The position numbers and the translations under genes are program-made. The notes beneath the pieces were generated by a model that saw only the letters and a list, made by a program, of their open reading frames with translations, ran no database searches and was not told where the DNA came from. This document shows, one piece after another, positions 21 to 11,822 of a stretch of 64,000 nucleotides of DNA (position 1 is the stretch's first letter; each line of letters begins with the position of its first letter). Source of the DNA: Hormoscilla sp. (GTDB lineage: Bacteria > Cyanobacteriota > Cyanobacteriia > Cyanobacteriales > Desertifilaceae); NCBI GenBank assembly GCA_051439505.1, contig JBFRWI010000009.1, positions 25,813 to 89,812 of the forward strand, given 5' to 3'.

Positions 21-419
21 TTAGGGAGAATTTTTGAGGATGGCGAGGGCCCGATCGAAGGGAAATTCCCTGGCCCGAGTTTGCATAATTGCTTGCACAA
101 TGTCGAGAAAATTACAGTCAACATTGTTGTCGGCGTGGATAATTTTGCTAGCAGGATGTTTAGATGGGGTTGTGTGATTTTCAAAAGTAAAACCGGTTTC
201 TAGTCCGGGTTGGTGTTGATGCCAGGTAAGACATTGACCTCGCAAGGTAAACTGAAACCAGATAACTTCATTGTCGAGCAAATCAAAAAATACGTCAAAA
301 TAAGGCTCTTCCCCTTGATACCAAATTCGCTCGCTCTGATTGGACTTGGCAGTTTTTAAGAGTTTGCGATCGATCCGGCGCAGAGTGGCCCCAAGGGCCC
401 TAATCTCATTTTGATTCAT
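21..419 (-). CDS. conserved hypothetical protein
   Basis: 132-aa ATG ORF with plausible globular sequence (WYQGEEPYFDVFF..WFQFTLRG); no motif recognised. Confidence 0.6.
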   Translation of the reverse strand: MNQNEIRALGATLRRIDRKLLKTAKSNQSERIWYQGEEPYFDVFFDLLDNEVIWFQFTLRGQCLTWHQHQPGLETGFTFENHTTPSKHPASKIIHADNNVDCNFLDIVQAIMQTRAREFPFDRALAILKNSP

Positions 420-420
420 G

Positions 421-472
421 GGTTGTCAGTTGTCAGTTATAAGTTGTAAGTTGTAAGTGGTCAGCTATCAGC
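421..472. repeat. 7-bp short tandem repeat (STRR-like)
   Basis: gttgtca gttgtca gttataa gttgtaa gttgtaa gtggtca gctatca. Confidence 0.7.
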
Positions 473-515
473 GTTATGGTAGCGATCGCTATTGCGGTTT
501 CAAATCTCAACTATT

Positions 516-1088
516 ATGACTGATTGTCGTAAGGGACGTATTTTGGCAGCGATCTGCCTGTTCGTGTTGTCTGTCACCCTGAGCTGGATGCCGTTGCTGG
601 GAACGCCACCGGCGCTAGCGGGGATTAATGATGATAAGTTTGATGGCAATATCTTTGCTCTCTATGGCGGCAATGGTTCATTGATACCGCCGAAAGTGAC
701 ATTGGCGCAGGCCCTGAAGCGGGATAAACCCATCCTGCTGATGTTTTACGTGGAGGACAGTCGCGACTGCAAGCAATATTCGACTGTGGTTTCCCAACTT
801 CAGGCATCTTATGGGGTGCCCGCAGATTTTATCTTGATCGATGTGGATGCGATCTTGCCCAAATCGACCTATGAACCTACGGAACCGGGATATTATTATG
901 AAGGCTTGGTGCCTCAAACTCTGATTCTGGATTCCGCTGGTAAGGTGGTTTTTAAGGCTAGCGGCAATATCCCCTTTGAACGGGTGGATGATGCCTTCCG
1001 AAAGGTGTTTGATTTGTTGCCCCGATCGGAATCGGTCGAGTTAAGGCGGCGACCGGTGAATGAAATTAATGTGGAGTTGACTCAATAA
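516..1088 (+). CDS. thylakoid photosystem I accumulation factor-like thioredoxin-fold protein
   Basis: Signal peptide, then DDKFDGNIFALYGGNGSLIPP, FYVEDSRDCKQY, YYEGLVPQT, RPVNEINVEL; ATG at 516 preferred over TTG at 492. Confidence 0.75.
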   Translation: MTDCRKGRILAAICLFVLSVTLSWMPLLGTPPALAGINDDKFDGNIFALYGGNGSLIPPKVTLAQALKRDKPILLMFYVEDSRDCKQYSTVVSQLQASYGVPADFILIDVDAILPKSTYEPTEPGYYYEGLVPQTLILDSAGKVVFKASGNIPFERVDDAFRKVFDLLPRSESVELRRRPVNEINVELTQ

Positions 1089-1322
1089 CTGGGACGTTGC
1101 ATAATTATGGGGAGATTTGTCAAGGCGATCGTCCCATAATTGTGCAATCGGCCCCGGCTCGTCTCTTTGGATAACCAACAACTCCTCCATGCTGAAGGAG
1201 AACCTGCCATTTTGCCGATGGTTTCAGCGTCTACATCCGATGATAAGGGGTTGCTAATTGCTAATGTTAAATGATTGCTCTCTCTAGTCATTAGTAGTCC
1301 TGAATAGATGGATTTACTCTTG

Positions 1323-1356
1323 GCAATTAGCAATTAACAATTAGCAATTAGCAATT
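1323..1356. repeat. 7-bp STRR (CAATTAG)n
   Basis: About 5 tandem caattag/caattaa units; related tracts near 6932, 17610, 58680 and 63495. Confidence 0.7.
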
Positions 1357-1426
1357 TTAAACAATTGGCTGCTATCATCGGTAAAAATGTGCAACGCCTT
1401 AATGTTAAATTTTCCTGCTGTTAAAA

Positions 1427-3415
1427 TCAGGTTTCATCTTCAGCTAAAGTAATCAAGGCATCATCGAGAGTGAGATTTAGCTGCTGATGCAGACTGGGAA
1501 TTAAGTCAATACCAAAGTTTTTATTCTTATCCTCAGCTTGGGCACGAAGTTTTACACCAATACAGAGCTCGTCCCGGGCCAAAGCCGCCTCGACGCAGTC
1601 AGCAAAGGTAAGTTTGCTTAGTAGTTTGGGTGGAAAGTATAGGGACAGGGGCTTGATGTACAGTTCGCAGCCATTGATGTCGAATAAATGATTGTAGATT
1701 AACATCACATCAGGCTCTTGGGATGCCTGGGCTAAAATTTTAGACACAATTTGATTAGAAAGCAGGAAGTCTTTAACACCGGCTTTAATTACCAGGTCCG
1801 TGTCTTCAGAGTTAACTATCTCCGCAATTAATTCCGTGGTGATTTGCTGGCCCGTTTTCCGGCTATACTCTCGGAAAATTTGTCGCAGTTGCAGTAAGAC
1901 TGTCAGGGTCTTGGCATCAATTTCATCGGGGTTTTCCCCACTGCCAGCTAAAATGGGGATGCTGTTAAACTCATAGGGCTTTAAGTTCCACAGTTCCTCG
2001 ACTGAGTCTACATTCACCTGCATTGCTTCCATCCTGACATCGGGGTAGGATTTGGCTATCTGGTCAAATTCAGCTTGCATCTGCGGGGTTAAATCCTTCA
2101 CCGCCAGGTTTACTTGCGAACCACGCAAGGCGTATTGGGCATATTCTCTCAGGGCGATCGGGGCTTTCGGGTTCCAACCAATCAGCAGATGCTTTTCCGT
2201 TTGGCGAACTGCGCAGCGTCGATAGTCAGCATAGCCGAGGTTCCGAGGCCGTGCGAGAATTTCGGGATCAAACTTGATGGTCGAGTCATCTTCTGCGAGG
2301 ACAATAATTTCATCATCGTCAGCTAGCTGGTAATCTTTACTCGGTCTGAGGGAAATAGTGCCATCTGCATGACGCACCCCTAGGGGCATACTTCTGAGGA
2401 AATGAAAGATCGACTCACCGAAAGAGAGATTCGGCCAACCGGTGGAGGGGCGATAGAAATAAAATTCGTTTCCTTCAAAGCCCACCAAGTTTAAGTATAC
2501 TGCCGCTAGCCCCACGTTGCGGGAAGTCTGAACTAAAATCCGAGCTAAAATATCGGCTTCATTCAGAGTGGTGACTGCTCCGGGAGCAATGTTTTCCGCA
2601 AGAATGCGATATTGCCCTGAGTGTAATTCTACCACTATTGCTGGCAAGGAGGAGCCTTCCTCATTTGCTGCTACCACAGCCAGAATGGCCTTCACCACCC
2701 GAGCATCGGATAAAGTCTTGAATTCCTCGGGGTCCGATCCCTTGGCATCATTCAAGATAATCACAGATTTAGCCAGTTGGACTGCGACTTTATTCAGATT
2801 CTGCAAATTCGTGACTGCGCCATTTCTGGTAACTACTCTGGTAGTTTTGAGGTCTCCGATTTCATTGCGAATAAAATCATCCATATCCTCCTTATCTGCT
2901 TCCGACAGGATGACAACAACTGCATCTGGTTCTGATTCATTCGCCAACACTAACTCTGTAATAATATCTCCGCTCCGGTCATTGAATCCTAAAATTAAGG
3001 TATGGTTTTCTTCCACTACCATGCTTTTACCCTTGCGCAGCAATTGCAGTCGGGATTCAAATTCCTCAGTAATGAAGGCTACCAGACTGGAGAACAGCAC
3101 TAAGCCGACAAAAATCGCGATCACGCCCACCAGTTTGGCAGCAAAATTGGCATCGTCCCCCGTGTCTCTCAGCCCGATCAGCTGCACGAATATTTCCCAT
3201 GATAAATCAGATGAATTTTCAATATATTCATTGGGAAAAAAGACTTCTGCCAAGTAACGGCATATTGCCAGTAGCAAAAAGGCTACAAAAAAGGCTGACA
3301 ATAAAGCCAGAAATACTGACAAGCCCCCACGGGACATAAAGTTGTCAAATTTGTACTGGAGGCGATTTTGCCAGGAAACTTTGTTTGACGTTGACATACT
3401 ATTGTGTTTCTCCAC
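1427..3415 (-). CDS. CASTOR/POLLUX (DMI1)-related putative cation channel with tandem RCK domains
   Basis: RLQYKFDNFMSRG, TM-pore (RDTGD)-TM, LRKGKSMVVEENHTLILG, LVGFEGNEFY, second RCK (LLIGWN; DAKTLTVLLQLR; IAEIV; GCELYIKP). Confidence 0.85.
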   Translation of the reverse strand: MEKHNSMSTSNKVSWQNRLQYKFDNFMSRGGLSVFLALLSAFFVAFLLLAICRYLAEVFFPNEYIENSSDLSWEIFVQLIGLRDTGDDANFAAKLVGVIAIFVGLVLFSSLVAFITEEFESRLQLLRKGKSMVVEENHTLILGFNDRSGDIITELVLANESEPDAVVVILSEADKEDMDDFIRNEIGDLKTTRVVTRNGAVTNLQNLNKVAVQLAKSVIILNDAKGSDPEEFKTLSDARVVKAILAVVAANEEGSSLPAIVVELHSGQYRILAENIAPGAVTTLNEADILARILVQTSRNVGLAAVYLNLVGFEGNEFYFYRPSTGWPNLSFGESIFHFLRSMPLGVRHADGTISLRPSKDYQLADDDEIIVLAEDDSTIKFDPEILARPRNLGYADYRRCAVRQTEKHLLIGWNPKAPIALREYAQYALRGSQVNLAVKDLTPQMQAEFDQIAKSYPDVRMEAMQVNVDSVEELWNLKPYEFNSIPILAGSGENPDEIDAKTLTVLLQLRQIFREYSRKTGQQITTELIAEIVNSEDTDLVIKAGVKDFLLSNQIVSKILAQASQEPDVMLIYNHLFDINGCELYIKPLSLYFPPKLLSKLTFADCVEAALARDELCIGVKLRAQAEDKNKNFGIDLIPSLHQQLNLTLDDALITLAEDET

Positions 3416-3557
3416 GATCGGATACCATCGGTTTGGGGGTAGTATAGAGGAATTGACTACCTCCAGTCAAGTCGGGGTATTTTGGTGCTACTTGACAAAG
3501 AAAGGGTTACGCTAGGGTAGCAGGGTACTCACCAGTATAGTACCCGATCGCCATGAA

Positions 3558-4676
3558 ATGACACCAGACGAAGAGAAATTTATGACTAAGAGAAGGCCAC
3601 GCCCGTCTATCGGTTTTTTAGCAGGAGTGCTATTCCTGAGTGCGACCGCCTGTGGCGGCAATCAAAAGCAAAATACTACTACCCAGATAGTTGCACCACC
3701 CCCAGAAGAACGATTGAGTAACTATGTACTGGCCGATGGTTCCAGTACCGTCTTCCCGATCGCGGAAGCCATGGCACAAAAGTTTATGAAAGCTAATCCG
3801 ACAATTGGGGTAACGGTGGGCATATCCAGTTCGGGAGTGGGGTTCAAGAAGTTCTGCATTGGAGACACTGATATCTCTAACGCTTCTCGTCCCATTAAGA
3901 AATCCGAGATCGCATTTTGTGAGGCCAACAAAATTGAGTACGTGGAAATTCCCGTGGCCTTCGATGCGATCGCGGTGGCGGTCAACCGCTACAATGACTG
4001 GACAAGCTGCCTTACCCCACAGCAGTTGGGCAAAATTTGGGAACCTGCTGCAGAAGGGGAAGTAGTCAACTGGCAGCAGATCTCAGAGGAGTACCCCGAT
4101 GTACGTCTGGGTCTCTATGGTGCTGAAAGTGATTCCGGTACCTACGATTACTTTACCGATGCTATCACGGGGGAAGAGGGTAAAAGCCGCAGTGACTACA
4201 CCGCTAGTCCCGATGATATCGTCACCATTCAGGGGATCGAGTCGGAGTATGGCTCTTTGGGATTTATCAGCTTGTCTTCCTATGAAAAAAACAAGGATGC
4301 TTTAAACTTGATTGCCATTGAAAATGAAAGCGGCGAATGCACCGAACCAAGCCCAGAGACGATCGGCAAAGGCACCTACAATCCCTTGGCACGTCCCTTA
4401 TTGCTATATATCAACAAGGAGTCTCTAGAAAAAATACCTGCGGTCAAAGCCTTTGTTGAGTACCTTCTCAATGCTGAACACCAAGCTGTAATCTCAGAAG
4501 CAGGATATGTACCTTTGCCAGAGAATCTGTTACTAAAAGTGCGGGAACGGATTGCCGATCGCATCACTGGTTCAATGTTTGTAGATGGGTCTTCAGTTGG
4601 TGTCGATTTATCAGAGAAGCTGTCGGAAACAAAAAAGAACAAACCAATAAACAGCCCTGAATCTAACGGTAATTGA
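3558..4676 (+). CDS. PstS-family periplasmic substrate-binding lipoprotein (orphan, divergent)
   Basis: Lipobox ATAC, DGSSTVFP, DISNASRPIK, DSGTYDYF, YNPLARPLLLY; no pstCAB in window. Confidence 0.85.
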   Translation: MTPDEEKFMTKRRPRPSIGFLAGVLFLSATACGGNQKQNTTTQIVAPPPEERLSNYVLADGSSTVFPIAEAMAQKFMKANPTIGVTVGISSSGVGFKKFCIGDTDISNASRPIKKSEIAFCEANKIEYVEIPVAFDAIAVAVNRYNDWTSCLTPQQLGKIWEPAAEGEVVNWQQISEEYPDVRLGLYGAESDSGTYDYFTDAITGEEGKSRSDYTASPDDIVTIQGIESEYGSLGFISLSSYEKNKDALNLIAIENESGECTEPSPETIGKGTYNPLARPLLLYINKESLEKIPAVKAFVEYLLNAEHQAVISEAGYVPLPENLLLKVRERIADRITGSMFVDGSSVGVDLSEKLSETKKNKPINSPESNGN

Positions 4677-4700
4677 TTAGTCTCATCTCGCACTGGGTAT

Positions 4701-4742
4701 AGGAAACCCGGTTTTTTGCTCGTACCGGGTTTCCGAGTTTCC
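4701..4742. repeat. palindromic REP-like hairpin, possible terminator between convergent genes
   Basis: ggaaacccgg ttttttgctcgta ccgggtttcc. Confidence 0.5.
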
Positions 4743-4758
4743 CCAGGGAGAATCTCAA

Positions 4759-6927
4759 TCAAGCAAATACCAAAATCGTGATTACCAGCAATGTCTTCAG
4801 AAGTGTAGGCCAGTAAAGCAACTTTGATATCAAGTTATCCTTATACTTGATGAAAGGAGCGTTAGGATGAGAGAGCAACAGGATAGCATTAACTGCCACC
4901 AGGAAAATGTAAAAATAGATCACGAAGTAGAAATACTCGAAGTAAAGAATTCCTTTCGTGACGATCTGTTCTCTCACGGCGATCTGGTCGAGGATGACAA
5001 TAAAGACAAAACCAGCACAAGCTGCCAAAACCTCCGATGCCTTCTCCTCATCGGCGATCAGCAGCATCGCAAAGAGCAGAGTGACGACAACGAAGAGTGG
5101 TCCGACTCTCGAAATAAACGGACCGATGAAATCCCTTTGCAGCACGATCGTGAAATTCAGTTCGGGAAAGTTAGTTTTGAACACATTACTTTTGATGCCA
5201 AAATTGGTATCATAGGTTTTGAACCTGTACTCGAAAAAACTATCACTCAGATTCCAGTTGCCCAAGACAATATCTTTATCTACACCAGGTTTAGTTCTGG
5301 GATTGATCACTTGGTAGCCCCCGAGGTCTGGAACCAGAATTACCTGGCGGTTTAATTCCCGACGATTAAAGTCCTGGTGTAATAACCTAATCTTGACATC
5401 TTTATAGTCAAAGGGATAATTGGAAAAATCTAAGTCCTGACGCAAGGTAGCTTCAACATACCAACCAATCACCTCAACATCATCATTTTCCTCCTGGTGG
5501 CGATAAGCTTCCGTCACTTCCAAATCATTGGCATCAATAGCATCGGGTAGGATAAAACCACGCTCCAACTCATCATGGATTCCCTCCTGGTATTCCTGCC
5601 AGATATAGCCAGTCACGAATACGTCGTTAGAACTGGTAAAATCCAGGGACTGAATATAAACTCCCGTGGGTACTAACAGCGGTGGTTTCTGGTTTAATTT
5701 GGCGCTTAACTCAACTTGAGGAAGCAATAACTGATCTACGCCAGTCTCATTCAGCAGCAGATTCCGAGTCGAGGTATAGGTACGTGTTTTGATCGCCAAA
5801 CTCCAGATAAATCCGATTTCTGCTATAAACAACAGGCTGGCAGTAGAGGATAGTACACTAAGACGCTTGACAGTACCCTTGTCAGTCCGGAATAGGAGGA
5901 CAAAGAGAAACACGAAAAACCACACAAATGCCAGACTGAGGAAGATGAGTTGGCGTCGCGTGGTTTGGTTGTCGGGCAAAACTTCGTCCTGAATAAAGAC
6001 TACTCCCACCACCCATCCATTCTGATTTGCTTGTCGCAGGAATACCCAGGAATTTTGACCCGTGATGTTATCGCTCAAATCTGCTTCTACCGGTTCGCCA
6101 CGCAAGGCTCTCGCTACTAAATCTACTAAAGGACGAACTTGTGATTCGTTGCGATCGTATACGAGATCGAAGATGTTTGCCTGACTTTTGACATACTCTT
6201 CATTGGGATGATAGAGAAAATTTCCCGTCCGAGAAACTAGAAAGCCGTAGCCAGTTTTGCCGAGATCGAGGGACTTGACTATATCTGAGATCGTCTCCAC
6301 AGAATAGTCGGCGTAGACTATTCCTCGCGGACGCTGCTTGCGATCTCCTCGACTATAAAAAGGCGCTAAATATCCCACTGCTGGCTGATTGAATAAAGAA
6401 TTGTCCTGCCAAAAGTATGGTTCTCCCCAATGAGCCCCCTTGCTGAGAGTGTTCCGATACCAAGCATACTTAGGGCGAGTGTAGTTGTATTTAACTTCCA
6501 GGGATTGCAGTTCGCCGTTTAATCTGGCATAATAGGGCGCATACAGCATCACATTCGGATCGTAGGCGCGCGGTTCATAGGCAAGGCCCACATCTAAAAG
6601 CTGAGGCTTTTTCTCCAGTTCTGCTTTGAGTCGGCTTAATACCTGGGCGTCATTTAATCTGCCCGAAGTCAAATCGTTGGCGATCGCCAGGGTTGTGTCT
6701 TTAGCCACACGCAGTTCTCGGTCAATCTCCAAAGCCGCCCGGACTGTTTGTCGCTTGGCTGTTTTTCTCGCCTCTGAGATTATTCGCTGCTGTTCTCGCG
6801 AGTACAAAAACAGCCCGCCTGTCGCCAAGACGAAAGTGGTGGCGCAGAGGAGCAATGACGTGTAAAATGTCAGTTGTTGCCACGGTTTCTGTTTCTGTTT
6901 CTGTTTCTTTTTGACTTTCTGTTTCAT
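4759..6927 (-). CDS. dCache domain fused to pentameric ligand-gated ion channel (pLGIC) domain
   Basis: N-terminal TM; Cache motifs (WY..WGEPY; GKTGYGFLVSRTGNFLYHPN); 2 TMs; beta-rich extracellular domain with Pro-loop DFSNYPFD; LNFTIVLQR then 4 C-terminal TM helices. Confidence 0.75.
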   Translation of the reverse strand: MKQKVKKKQKQKQKPWQQLTFYTSLLLCATTFVLATGGLFLYSREQQRIISEARKTAKRQTVRAALEIDRELRVAKDTTLAIANDLTSGRLNDAQVLSRLKAELEKKPQLLDVGLAYEPRAYDPNVMLYAPYYARLNGELQSLEVKYNYTRPKYAWYRNTLSKGAHWGEPYFWQDNSLFNQPAVGYLAPFYSRGDRKQRPRGIVYADYSVETISDIVKSLDLGKTGYGFLVSRTGNFLYHPNEEYVKSQANIFDLVYDRNESQVRPLVDLVARALRGEPVEADLSDNITGQNSWVFLRQANQNGWVVGVVFIQDEVLPDNQTTRRQLIFLSLAFVWFFVFLFVLLFRTDKGTVKRLSVLSSTASLLFIAEIGFIWSLAIKTRTYTSTRNLLLNETGVDQLLLPQVELSAKLNQKPPLLVPTGVYIQSLDFTSSNDVFVTGYIWQEYQEGIHDELERGFILPDAIDANDLEVTEAYRHQEENDDVEVIGWYVEATLRQDLDFSNYPFDYKDVKIRLLHQDFNRRELNRQVILVPDLGGYQVINPRTKPGVDKDIVLGNWNLSDSFFEYRFKTYDTNFGIKSNVFKTNFPELNFTIVLQRDFIGPFISRVGPLFVVVTLLFAMLLIADEEKASEVLAACAGFVFIVILDQIAVREQIVTKGILYFEYFYFVIYFYIFLVAVNAILLLSHPNAPFIKYKDNLISKLLYWPTLLKTLLVITILVFA

Positions 6928-6981
6928 TCTGTTAATTGCTAATTGCTAATTTACCGATTCTCAATTTTAAATTCTCCATTC

Positions 6982-8157
6982 TCAAAAACCACTGATGTTG
7001 ATTAAAAACCCAAACACAGCACCACCCAAAACTAGCCATGCTGCGTTAATTTGAAAGCGAATGGCTCCAATAGCTGCGGCAATAGCAATGAGGATAGTTG
7101 CTATATCAATCAGGGTACCTCGTGCCAACTGAATTGTCACCACTGCCATTAAGGCTACGGCCCCAGCATTGACCGCATCTAAAAATGCTGATGTCCACTT
7201 GGATGCCCGCAAGCGGGGAATCAGGGGATTTAAGGCAGCAACAAATAAAAATGAGGGCAGGAATATTCCCATTGTCGCAACTGCGGCACCAGGTAAACCA
7301 GCAATTAGGTAGCCAATGAATGTAGATGTGGAAAGCACCGGACCTGGGGTGAATTGACCGATCGCGATCGCATCCAGCAGTTGCTGCTGAGTCAACCAAC
7401 CATAGTCTCTGACCAAGCCATTTTCCAGAAAGGCCACCAGGACATAGCCACTACCAAATAAAATGCTTCCCACCTTCAGGAAAAATAACCCCAACTGCCA
7501 CAATGGCACCTGAGTTGCAGTCTTAGCAGCAACTGAGATCGCGGTTATGTCTGACAGGGCCGCACTGCTAGTTAACCCCAGGGCTACCAAGGCAGTATTC
7601 TGATGATTATCTCCTGCCGCCAGTCGCAGGCCGATCGTCCCCAAAACTCCCCCCAATAATAGCGCTGCTACCTGGTTTAATCCTAAGAATAGGGAAATGG
7701 CTACGCCCAAGGCAATAATGAGCAATTTCCAGTTTTTCACTGCCTTTTTCCCCAGACGCCACAAAGCATTCAAGATAATTGCCAGCACAGCAGGTTTAAT
7801 GCCGTAAAGTAAAGGAGCAACTTGGGGTAGAGTGCCAAAGGAGACATAAACCCAGGCCAGGATAGCAGTGATAGAAACTGCTGGGAGAATAAAACAGACC
7901 CCTGACACCACCAAACCGGGCAAACCTTTATAGATATAGCCGACATGGATGGCCATTTCGGTGGAATTGGGACCGGGAATGAGGTTGGTAGCACCAATTA
8001 AATCCAGGAAATGTTCCCTGGTTAACCACTGGCGTTTTTTGACGACCTCCTCCTCCATCATGGCAATGTGGGCGGCGGGGCCACCGAAGCCGATCGCCCC
8101 TAGTTTCAGAAATAATTTTGCCAGTTCGCCCAGATGCCCTTGATTTGAGTTTCTCAT
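6982..8157 (-). CDS. chrA: chromate efflux transporter (CHR family)
   Basis: LKLGAIGFGGP, IPGPNSTE, FGSGY, GQFTPGP; ATG at 8157 avoids overlap with the upstream gene. Confidence 0.9.
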   Translation of the reverse strand: MRNSNQGHLGELAKLFLKLGAIGFGGPAAHIAMMEEEVVKKRQWLTREHFLDLIGATNLIPGPNSTEMAIHVGYIYKGLPGLVVSGVCFILPAVSITAILAWVYVSFGTLPQVAPLLYGIKPAVLAIILNALWRLGKKAVKNWKLLIIALGVAISLFLGLNQVAALLLGGVLGTIGLRLAAGDNHQNTALVALGLTSSAALSDITAISVAAKTATQVPLWQLGLFFLKVGSILFGSGYVLVAFLENGLVRDYGWLTQQQLLDAIAIGQFTPGPVLSTSTFIGYLIAGLPGAAVATMGIFLPSFLFVAALNPLIPRLRASKWTSAFLDAVNAGAVALMAVVTIQLARGTLIDIATILIAIAAAIGAIRFQINAAWLVLGGAVFGFLINISGF

Positions 8158-8200
8158 CACTTTCCTCACAAGCGCAAAGCGTGCTGACGGGTGAACATGT

Positions 8201-9274
8201 CTAAAGCTGCGACATAGGATCGAGGGTAAGCAGGCGGCTAATTTCATCAGTTTGAAAACCTAAAGCCATGGGTCGGCGTACCCCTGGTAGAACCTGCACG
8301 TCATATAATTCTGTAATCACCCCTTCTAGCCTGAGCCAATGGACGATCGCACCAGTGTGAATATCAATTACCATTAAACCACAGCGAGGTTCGGCATCTT
8401 TAGCGATTAACCGCTCGTCTAATGCTAACCCCGAAAAAGTTTTATCTCCTCCCCGGGGCTTCGACAAGCCCGCGATCGCATAATTCCCCCAAAAAGTCAA
8501 GCCCCGCAGATAGCCAGGACAGAAAGCAACTGGTTCAAACCGTCCAGTTTGCAAGTCCCCATAGCCAAACTCGCCAGTACCCGAATTGTGCAGCCACAAC
8601 TTTCCCTGATACCATCGAGGGGAGTGGGGCATGGACAAACCAGTGAGAATAATTTCGTTAGACTGTAACTCTAGCACGCAACCGCCCGATCGCCTTTTAT
8701 CCCGCCAACCATCCACCACATCCGATCGACTACAGACCGTCACAAAACCAGGTTTGCCCTCTACCATAGCCAAACCATTCAGATGACAGCGGTCTTCATT
8801 CACCAGTTGAGAAATAAACGGCGGTTTCCATAAGGGAGTGCAACTATGGCGCTGACTCACCGTCGCCAGACAATTCAACAGACTACTGACAAAAATCACC
8901 CGCCCAGTGCTATCTACTACCAGATCGTGGATATCCAAATCCCCAGTACTGTAGCCAATACGGGGCACGTAAAGTTTGTCGTAACCGTTGTATAATTGCC
9001 CCGCAGACAGCACATTATCGAACTGCCACAGCTGATATTTAGAACTCATATACAAGCGTTCTGTGGTAGCATATAAACCCATCGCCCGATCGAACAGGCG
9101 CTCAAATCCAGAAATTCTTCCTTCCGGATTAACTCCTAGGAGAATGAGTCGCGAGGTTTGATAGGTAGTCAGGGCGAAGCAGATCTGCTGCCCAGTCATC
9201 CAGTCGAGTAACTGGCGAGAACAGAATACTTCCAGAGGTGGAGATGCTTTTGTTACTGGTTGCAATTGATTCAT
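8201..9274 (-). CDS. TIGR03032 family (DUF4915) protein
   Basis: TTYQ, FDRAMGL, TGDLDIHD, EDRCHLNGLAM, GLSMPHSPRWY, FCPGYLRG, ELYDV. Confidence 0.85.
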   Translation of the reverse strand: MNQLQPVTKASPPLEVFCSRQLLDWMTGQQICFALTTYQTSRLILLGVNPEGRISGFERLFDRAMGLYATTERLYMSSKYQLWQFDNVLSAGQLYNGYDKLYVPRIGYSTGDLDIHDLVVDSTGRVIFVSSLLNCLATVSQRHSCTPLWKPPFISQLVNEDRCHLNGLAMVEGKPGFVTVCSRSDVVDGWRDKRRSGGCVLELQSNEIILTGLSMPHSPRWYQGKLWLHNSGTGEFGYGDLQTGRFEPVAFCPGYLRGLTFWGNYAIAGLSKPRGGDKTFSGLALDERLIAKDAEPRCGLMVIDIHTGAIVHWLRLEGVITELYDVQVLPGVRRPMALGFQTDEISRLLTLDPMSQL

Positions 9275-10533: not shown

Positions 10534-11013
10534 ATGCATACCCTCAATCACACCCTAGAACAAAGCCTGATCGAAGCGGACGGTCGCTATCTCAGCTCCA
10601 CCGAACTCTACCCGCTAGAGCAGTATATTCAGAGTTACACTACCAGGCTGGAGACTTACCAGCAACTGAGCCAGCACGGCGAAAAACTGACCATCCAGGC
10701 GCTGCGTAAATTCGCGCAGGCTTATCCAGAACTGATTCGCCAGCATGGAGGACGCTGCAAATATGACATGTCTGAAGTGCTGCGCTACATCGCCTTGTCG
10801 ATTTTGCGAGACGACGAACTGTTGTTTAAGGAACAGATGATCGTCTGGTTAGATACAATTCTGATGGCTCACAAACGCACAAATCATTGCCTCCCGGCTT
10901 ATCAGAATTTGCAAGAAGTAATAGATGCTACTTTGCCCCCTGCATGTAGTAGTTTAGTGCGTCCTTATCTGGACATTGTGACTCTGGCGTTCAAGTCCCA
11001 CGCGAAAAAGTAA
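10534..11013 (+). CDS. phycobiliprotein-like globin-fold protein
   Basis: EADGRYLS and RCKYDMSEVLRYIA, matching phycobiliprotein CxRD..LRY; 159 aa. Confidence 0.75.
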   Translation: MHTLNHTLEQSLIEADGRYLSSTELYPLEQYIQSYTTRLETYQQLSQHGEKLTIQALRKFAQAYPELIRQHGGRCKYDMSEVLRYIALSILRDDELLFKEQMIVWLDTILMAHKRTNHCLPAYQNLQEVIDATLPPACSSLVRPYLDIVTLAFKSHAKK

Positions 11014-11096
11014 TGAATTGGGATCACTTTCAGAAGATATCTAGGCACCGACTGAGCGCGAATTCAAAACTGAATTAACAGAAAAGAGGAAATAAA

Positions 11097-11822
11097 ATGA
11101 AGGGAATCAAACCATTGCAAGTTAGCCGCAGCTCCTCATTAGAAGAACGGCAGCAGGCACTGTACCAAATTTACCGTCAAGTCCTGGGTCGTCAGCCTTA
11201 TGCTTTTGAACGACGGATTTTAGCCAAGGCGGAGAAAGACTTTCTCAAGGATAAAATCGGCGTGCGACGCTTTCTCAAGGAACTGGGGCACTCGGAAGTT
11301 TATCTGGATACCTTTTATCACGGTTGTGCTAACTTGAAGTTTCTGGAATTGTGCTTCAAGCACTTTTTAGGTCGGGCCCCGAAAAATCAGAAGGAGGTGC
11401 AAATTTACTGCGATATTCTGATGCACGAAGGGGTTAACCAGCTAATCACTGCTATTTTGGACTCGGAAGAATACCGCAAGGTGTTTGGCTGCTTTACGGT
11501 GCCCTATCCTCATCAACCAAAGTACTACGAATCTCCGAAAGCGTACTTAGAATCTCATATACTCAATCAGGAACAGATCGCTCAGCGGGGTATGTCAGTG
11601 CCAACGATGTACTGGCATCAGCTTGGTTTGAACTGTGAGGCGGGGGTCTGTCGTCACCCAGAAGCGGATGAAGTGCTCGAACCCCTAGTATCGGTAGAAG
11701 CCGAAATGTTGCAGGTGAAGTTGCAGGAGTTGCTGAAGCTATTGGAGTCCGATCGGGGAAAACAGGCGTTGGCTGAGTTGCCTCCTCAACAGGTCCAAAA
11801 GCTGCGTCAAGTCATTGGTTAG
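11097..11822 (+). CDS. phycobilisome rod-core linker domain protein (CpcG-like)
   Basis: IYRQVLGR, VRRFLKELGHSEVY, FKHFLGRAP, LDSEEY..FG..TVPY. Confidence 0.8.
   Translation: MKGIKPLQVSRSSSLEERQQALYQIYRQVLGRQPYAFERRILAKAEKDFLKDKIGVRRFLKELGHSEVYLDTFYHGCANLKFLELCFKHFLGRAPKNQKEVQIYCDILMHEGVNQLITAILDSEEYRKVFGCFTVPYPHQPKYYESPKAYLESHILNQEQIAQRGMSVPTMYWHQLGLNCEAGVCRHPEADEVLEPLVSVEAEMLQVKLQELLKLLESDRGKQALAELPPQQVQKLRQVIG

Follow-up and report, generated by a model that had tools for sequence, protein, structure and literature searches.

Fusions of Cache (MCP-N) domains to prokaryotic ligand-gated ion channels of the pentameric type (pLGICs) were described by Tasneem et al. 2004 (PMC549065), who reported PBP-II genes as their neighbours and proposed that these cooperate with the channel; the word "phosphate" does not occur in the main text of that paper. 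According to Jaiteh 2016 (PMC4795631), pLGICs of unicellular organisms have no known biological role, and DeCLIC is presented in PMC12664993 as the only pLGIC with a partly characterised N-terminal domain (NTD). In this work, we analysed a stretch of 64,000 nucleotides of Hormoscilla sp. DNA (contig JBFRWI010000009.1, positions 25,813 to 89,812; the window), in which a Cache-pLGIC gene lies beside genes for a PstS-family binding protein and for a relative of the plant symbiosis channel CASTOR. Like the systems of 2004, the locus has a Cache domain N-terminal to a Cys-less pLGIC and a stand-alone PBP-II gene nearby, but its partner is derived from SphX, belongs to a separate clade that matches a single pLGIC clade in mirror fashion, and is encoded convergently instead of in an operon. 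Whereas Cache-pLGIC fusions and their binding-protein neighbours were already described in 2004, the SphX-derived partner clade and the association with CASTOR appear to be new here; neither was met in literature searches whose reach stopped short of subscription papers and supplements. A literature search that had most subscription papers outside its reach turned up no experimental work on Cache-fused pLGICs or on bacterial homologues of CASTOR.

The explanation that we prefer, tentatively and with somewhat less than even confidence, is that the phosphate-binding-type periplasmic protein encoded by the middle gene is the ligand-capturing partner that opens the co-inherited Cache-pLGIC, with the CASTOR-like channel as a separable companion. 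The locus is arranged as follows:

1427..3415, minus strand: gene for the CASTOR-like channel, open reading frame (ORF) of 662 aa
3416..3557, no strand: divergent intergenic region, 142 bp between the CASTOR and pstS genes
3558..4676, plus strand: gene for the orphan PstS-family lipoprotein, ORF of 372 aa
Between the pstS and pLGIC genes: convergent gap of 82 bp
4759..6927, minus strand: gene for the Cache-pLGIC, ORF of 722 aa
5962..6801, minus strand: periplasmic dCache_1 domain, aa 43-322
4762..5775, minus strand: pLGIC module, aa 385-722, with Pro-loop YPFD (P505, D507), pre-M1 R598, M1 P610 and an M2 helix with invariant F642

All three ORFs are present and intact where a preliminary description of the locus had placed them, and its reading of a CASTOR gene divergent from pstS across about 140 bp, with pstS converging on the pLGIC gene, is confirmed. 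The layout is not an assembly artefact, since contigs of relatives (~90-95% alike; from sequencing runs X10 and X5, which belong to two other studies) span the gene junctions, that between CASTOR and pstS in X10 and X5 and that between pstS and pLGIC in X10. Run X1 covers 30 of 30 bins of window positions 400-8300. An operon of the three genes was rejected, the layout being divergent and convergent.

The linkage of binding protein and channel in other genomes supports the preferred explanation. A profile search for the pLGIC, covering 401 genomes from 144 genera of the order, matched 45 genomes in 24 genera, and flanks of up to ~8 kb were read for all 45, several of them stopping at a contig edge; a genome-contig search with a single protein instead of the profile gave only seven loci. 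Of the 45 genomes, 12 have a PstS-like gene no more than ~4.6 kb from the pLGIC; they belong to 5 of the 24 genera and to five families and show three orientations, where ~0.2-0.5% per genome would be expected by chance. The two genes converge in the window genome (G000) and in G002, G004, G016 and G052; a divergent SBP_bac_3-PstS fusion stands beside a TPR-Cache-pLGIC in five g50 genomes; a same-strand, frameshifted fusion adjoins the pLGIC in G163; and the fusion is two genes away from the pLGIC in G030. The TPR-Cache-pLGIC fusions at loci L124, L126, L127, L128 and L130 are ~1250 aa long and divergent from tandem SBP_bac_3-PstS proteins with partly lost phosphate contacts.

Phylogenies of both partners agree with this distribution. 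In a 121-row tree of the channel module, from which the broken G002 and G004 genes and rows with fewer than 300 aligned residues were excluded, all 10 linked rows fell inside one 17-row clade (support 98), and none of the 104 rows outside it was linked. Six of the other seven rows in that clade come from genus g109 or like metagenome loci; the seventh is G388, whose pLGIC begins 233 bp from a contig end and whose fusion gene, located on another contig, leads into a transposase. A PstS tree of 69 rows (a quick tree, as was the CASTOR tree) unites 11 linked proteins and the unlinked orphan of G392 in one 12-row clade (support 94-95), and a 6-row PstS subclade mirrors a 9-row pLGIC subclade. A reciprocal search with a profile of the linked copies matched 106 of the 401 genomes; examination of the best 30 loci yielded 11 new sequences, one of which (L222) entered the PstS clade. 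Adjacency of the two genes persists at 38-46% PstS identity, across rearrangement and domain fusion. Binding protein and Cache-pLGIC make up a linked, co-inherited pair, and of the linkage in other genomes that had been anticipated for all three genes, this part held, while the CASTOR-like gene proved mostly unlinked.

The linked binding proteins also differ from ordinary PstS. A pstC or pstA gene occurs at none of the 12 linked loci as against 27 of 45 comparator loci, the motif G-[YF]-x-G-x-x-Y is found in all 57 other PstS rows versus 1 of the 12 clade rows, and a residue of the phosphate-site triad or a partner residue is changed in 8 of 12 clade members versus 4 of 57 others (two of those four possibly being alignment gaps). 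In two lineages of linked copies with changed phosphate residues dN/dS is 0.08 and 0.10. The linked PstS clade is under purifying selection with its phosphate pocket mostly altered, and the window copy keeps every contact. Judged from these sequences, the clade shows the pattern of a transporter subunit that has probably moved to a new job.

The window protein was expected to be an orphan PstS-like lipoprotein, and it is one: it matches TIGR02136 over the cut-off, has a lipobox Cys32 (likely start Met9, at 3582), and is an orphan because the pstS-pstS-pstC-pstA operon of the genome sits on a different contig, C59. It is one of seven PBP_like_2 genes in the genome. Synechocystis SphX, an S-type PstS, is described as binding phosphate through eight contacts and a Thr-Asp-Arg triad (PMC13614923), and the paper on C. 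perfringens PBP-1 gives a similar set. The window copy has all eight contacts (S62, S63, T64, S92, S110, S193, G194 and T195, with Ser92 corresponding to Thr45), the triad T64-D136-R279 and a Ser at the discriminator site, at spacings that match SphX (judged by sequence spacing rather than direct alignment), which makes it of SphX type. Unlike SphX, it has changed second-shell motifs (SGTGGG to SSSGVG and YFGxAYY to FISLSSY) and relatives that have lost contacts, and its gene has neither pstCAB nearby nor a Pho-box-like repeat, so that it does not classify as a Pst ABC transporter subunit, although it could still serve a distant PstCAB. Pho-box-like repeats were scored with a Pho-box consensus (maximum 24): the score upstream of the window gene, 18, is at background level (reached by 263 of 1500 random windows), and three other pstS genes of the genome score 21-22 (reached by 3 of 1500). 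Consensus matching found no Pho-box-like triple repeat in the 142-bp divergent region. Decay of the gene was considered and rejected, its dN/dS of 0.34 being similar to those of its neighbours LmeA (0.27) and pLGIC (0.28). Given the residues retained, phosphate or a related oxyanion would be the first candidate ligand for the window copy, and the intact phosphate site of this co-inherited protein points to a testable candidate ligand and partner for the Cache-pLGIC. A second orphan PstS-like gene of this genome, on contig C46 (L023:4244-6449), is followed by an aquaporin (MIP) gene and an ArsC-like gene; it does have a Pho-box-like repeat, and the unit looks arsenic-related.

Recognition of the channel subunit depended on structure. 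Pfam and single-sequence searches of 4759-6927 detect the Cache half alone, a single-sequence PDB search with the channel half gave no pLGIC match, and a profile of the channel half gave weak GLIC matches (E 0.03). A structure model built from a 59-row alignment (pLDDT 85) matched GLIC and GABA-A in Foldseek (best E 5.6e-12, TMt 0.74), in keeping with the Cache-pLGIC fusion first proposed, and has the fold of the Pro-loop superfamily, a beta-sandwich extracellular domain (ECD) followed by a four-helix transmembrane domain. The signature of that superfamily, an [F/Y]PxD Pro-loop, a pre-M1 Arg and an M1 Pro according to Jaiteh 2016 (PMC4795631), is present as P505 (59/59 rows), D507 (57/59), R598 (58/59) and P610 (44/59). 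Seven transmembrane (TM) helices are predicted, the order in the model being TM, dCache_1, TM, TM, ECD and M1-M4; with this topology the Cache domain and the ECD would both face the periplasm, on the side of the lipoprotein. The protein is predicted to form a gated homopentamer. It resembles GLIC and DeCLIC in its ECD, Pro-loop and four-helix membrane domain, and DeCLIC likewise has a periplasmic N-terminal module (PMC12664993); it differs from them in its ~14% identity, three extra TM helices, a Cache domain in place of the DeCLIC NTD and the lack of an M2-M3 proline. This proline and a cationic 0' Lys/Arg, which are common but not absolute features, are absent from the window protein (P0001), and neither is the majority residue in the 59-row alignment. 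For M2 we take R652 to be 19', following the convention for GABA-A and GLIC motifs, and this inferred numbering puts the invariant F642 (59/59) at the 9' gate and E632 (43/59) at -1'. A Glu at the inferred -1' position suggests that the pore passes cations.

The Cache domain is matched best by 3li8/3lib from Methanosarcina and by domains of chemoreceptors such as McpX. It does not belong with the dCache_1AA domains, Tyr154 standing where the Arg of their Y-x4-R-x-W-Y motif belongs. Its pocket contains an aromatic box and D207. The dCache_1AM amine motif is given as W155, F188/Y189, Y206, M215, S217, D235 and R103-D133 in PctD numbering (bioRxiv 2023.04.06.535858), and mapping through the 3LIB/3LI8 alignments suggests that it is partial, with the aromatics and D207 there and the equivalents of S217 and R103 missing; among the 59 family members, 30 have Asn and 17 have Glu in place of its terminal Asp. 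Complex predictions of P0001 (residues 40-600) with P0003 (residues 50-345) scored 0.39, 0.04 and 0.13 against a mark of 0.32, and were counted neither way.

Under the preferred explanation, the lipid-anchored SphX-like protein would have low (micromolar-type) affinity for phosphate or a related oxyanion, which it binds, and would no longer mainly supply PstCAB. Once closed, it would touch the periplasmic Cache domain or the ECD of the homopentamer and shift its gating, while the Cache pocket would probably take a second, amine-like ligand; the pore, with its Glu at the inferred -1' position and Phe gate at 9', would conduct cations. In other lineages the binding protein may have shifted to different ligands or acquired an SBP_bac_3 domain. 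CASTOR, a putative Ca2+-regulated channel, would have arrived in one ancestral cluster with the pair and might react to the ion flux, but the two would work without it. Precedent for a binding-protein partner comes from the proposal of Tasneem et al. 2004 and from distant, acidobacterial and gammaproteobacterial Cache-pLGICs (L005, L006 and L007) with a PBP-I (Peripla_BP_5) gene behind them, accompanied at L005 by a carbon-nitrogen hydrolase gene.

The gene at 1427-3415 had been read as a DMI1/CASTOR-like RCK channel, which the searches bear out (PF06241, E 5e-25; LjCASTOR structure 6o6j, E 8e-48). Two TM helices with a pore loop (WEIFVQLIGLRDTG) precede a tandem-RCK gating ring, an architecture that together with PF06241 places the protein in the CASTOR/POLLUX/DMI1 family. 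The gating-ring fold matches those of Lotus CASTOR (6o6j) and Medicago DMI1 (7vm8) at TMt 0.90. With the calcium ligands of plant CASTOR taken from Kim 2019 (PMC6697748), the Ca(II)/(III) ligands are kept, E493, E552, D553, D554 and S345 corresponding to E317 (conserved in 54/54), E375 (49/54), D376 (54/54), D377 (51/54) and S161 (51/54), whereas the Ca(I) acids D442/D444 are S266/Q268 in a pairwise alignment to 6o6j. The window protein further differs from its plant counterparts in its 26% identity and in having two TM helices only, and because its pore loop GLRDTG has an Arg, plant selectivity cannot be carried over. Its gating ring is predicted, from ligands and modelled fold, to work like that of CASTOR, and we infer a Ca2+-regulated channel. 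The locus gives a prokaryotic CASTOR a natural host context.

Whether this channel acts with the pair bears on a wider reading, put forward in the preliminary description, in which the two channels would produce and shape one ion signal. In the form weighed here, the binding protein and Cache-pLGIC would start a cation/Ca2+ influx, which the CASTOR-like channel, gated by Ca2+, would amplify or shape. We consider this full three-part circuit unlikely. Close CASTOR homologues occur in 21 of the 401 genomes, and a pLGIC accompanies them in 12 of these 21 versus 33 of the 380 others, an association exaggerated by Fisher tests, since related genomes are not independent. A single family, f36, supplies six of these 12 genomes, and its pLGICs fall elsewhere than in the linked clade. 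CASTOR and pLGIC were seen side by side in G000 and in a single further genus, g109; there, four of seven pLGIC genomes have the two genes 3-5 kb apart, separated by MscS in the loci read. They are unlinked in 11 of 12 sampled genomes with a full close CASTOR and a pLGIC (117 kb apart in G263). CASTOR was not found in any of four congeners, of which three have a broken pLGIC and in one of which no pLGIC was found, nor in G030 and the five genomes of g50, all of which have the PstS-pLGIC pair. All three genes are adjacent only in the window genome and close strains. The circuit draws support from the retained Ca(II)/(III) ligands and from the 9-row pLGIC subclade, all three lineages of which possess all three genes in differing pairings (all adjacent in G000; pLGIC with PstS in G016 and G052; pLGIC with MscS and CASTOR in the four g109 genomes). 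In g109, 6 of 12 genomes have all three genes (one CASTOR being truncated) and 4 of 12 have none, which together with the three lineages fits an ancestral cluster later broken up, although the four empty genomes may reflect one loss. The CASTOR tree neither shows nor rejects such a cluster, a single clade being unsupported but not rejected (p-AU 0.82). Cyanobacterial CASTOR genes also stand beside MscS, bestrophin or Ion_trans genes without any pLGIC, so general clustering of channel genes may suffice; at L018, L189, L202, L203, L192 and L195 the CASTOR-like gene is beside MscS or between bestrophin and Ion_trans genes. A universal three-gene module was rejected, and the CASTOR-like channel is likely a looser, separable companion of the pair. 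That an ancestral circuit is still intact here, a repurposed phosphate-binding protein gating the Cache-pLGIC and the CASTOR-like Ca2+-gated channel turning the influx into calcium spikes, seems to us rather improbable; were it true, a Cache-pLGIC would have its first native agonist route, and the plant symbiosis channel its first role in bacteria.

Several observations weigh against the binding protein as gating partner. No PstS-like neighbour was found in 33 of the 45 pLGIC genomes or at any of 78 metagenome loci (in the flanks available, many of them short), the PstS clade is long-branched, does not resolve under a mixture model and has a support of 73 in a 58-row tree, and the genes converge in the window and so form no operon. 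In g109 the presence of an unlinked PstS orthologue in all seven pLGIC genomes and its absence from the four that lack both channels speak for the pair, but it is on a different contig from the pLGIC in all seven. G002 and G004 have an intact PstS-like gene beside a broken pLGIC; the broken congener copies are a nonsense codon in G002 (L001), a frameshift and split in G004 (L002, L015) and a fragment in G003 (L016). On the channel side, the M2 numbering is inferred and the family is without the 0' Lys/Arg and M2-M3 proline. Because the linkage traces to one ancestral event, it amounts to about one independent observation plus retention, and co-transfer alone could explain it. This single origin, the missing operon and the survival of pstS beside broken channels would suit a passenger cassette of three unrelated membrane genes that moved together once among benthic marine cyanobacteria, each channel working alone and the PstS-like protein being a spare low-affinity phosphate binder for the PstCAB on C59, as its SphX contacts and the abundance of extra binding proteins in the genome would allow. 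Such a cassette accounts poorly for adjacency kept through sequence divergence, rearrangement and domain fusion, for altered phosphate residues under purifying selection, and for a window pstS gene without a Pho-box-like repeat, and we regard it as on the unlikely side, though with appreciable weight. Distinctly doubtful is an osmotic or ion-homeostasis cluster, in which sensing of an amine or osmolyte falls to the Cache domain alone, the pLGIC and CASTOR (with MscS in other genomes) are grouped as channels for salt or osmotic stress, and the binding protein is incidental. It gains from the aromatic box and D207, from the classing of 3LIB and McpX as amine sensors (bioRxiv 2023.04.06.535858) and from MscS genes, which adjoin CASTOR in three genera and stand next to the pLGIC of g109 and of G117, but the amine motif is incomplete as mapped here and its terminal position varies, the genome's MscS-like matches are on another contig (C182), and the mirrored PstS clade is left unexplained.

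Cache-pLGICs of other clades have different company. Their commonest neighbours found were SLATT/DUF4231 genes (16 loci), often with SLOG (LSDAT_prok; seven loci), at L013, L014, L122, L125, L131-L137 and L142 (family f11) and at L034, L038, L062, L063 and L065, which hints at nucleotide-signal or defence-type coupling. Tandem Cache-pLGIC gene pairs at L033, L057, L108, L110, L131 and L133 could form heteropentamers. The neighbours at L001 include chrA and a TIGR03032 gene in pieces, and L001:14174-16150 is a nucleotide-sugar epimerase-like ORF with an intein-like insertion judged by eye.

Minor features of the two intergenic regions are:

3470-3441, minus strand: promoter-like TTGACT-18-TATACT in the 142-bp divergent region, a consensus match only
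4692..4712, plus strand: terminator-like hairpin inside the 82-bp convergent gap

Promoter-like sites are at chance level (seven seen versus 8.9 expected). G002 and G004, both without CASTOR, retain the part of the divergent region between ~3448 and the start of pstS. The best-matching sequencing runs are marine sediment metagenomes from one study. Run X10 is recorded as RNA and its contigs cover all three genes; this was not counted as evidence of transcription because the contigs, up to 31 kb long, belong to a relative and the library may contain DNA. Window positions 1320-1400 consist of short repeats with TTAGCAA units and have very high read depth as a genome-wide repeat, and a TTTCTG run at 6880-6960 encodes the Lys/Gln-rich N-terminus of the pLGIC. 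Further along, at 10534-11822, a divergent phycobiliprotein-like gene (159 aa, under all NCBIfam cut-offs) is followed by a CpcG-like linker gene.

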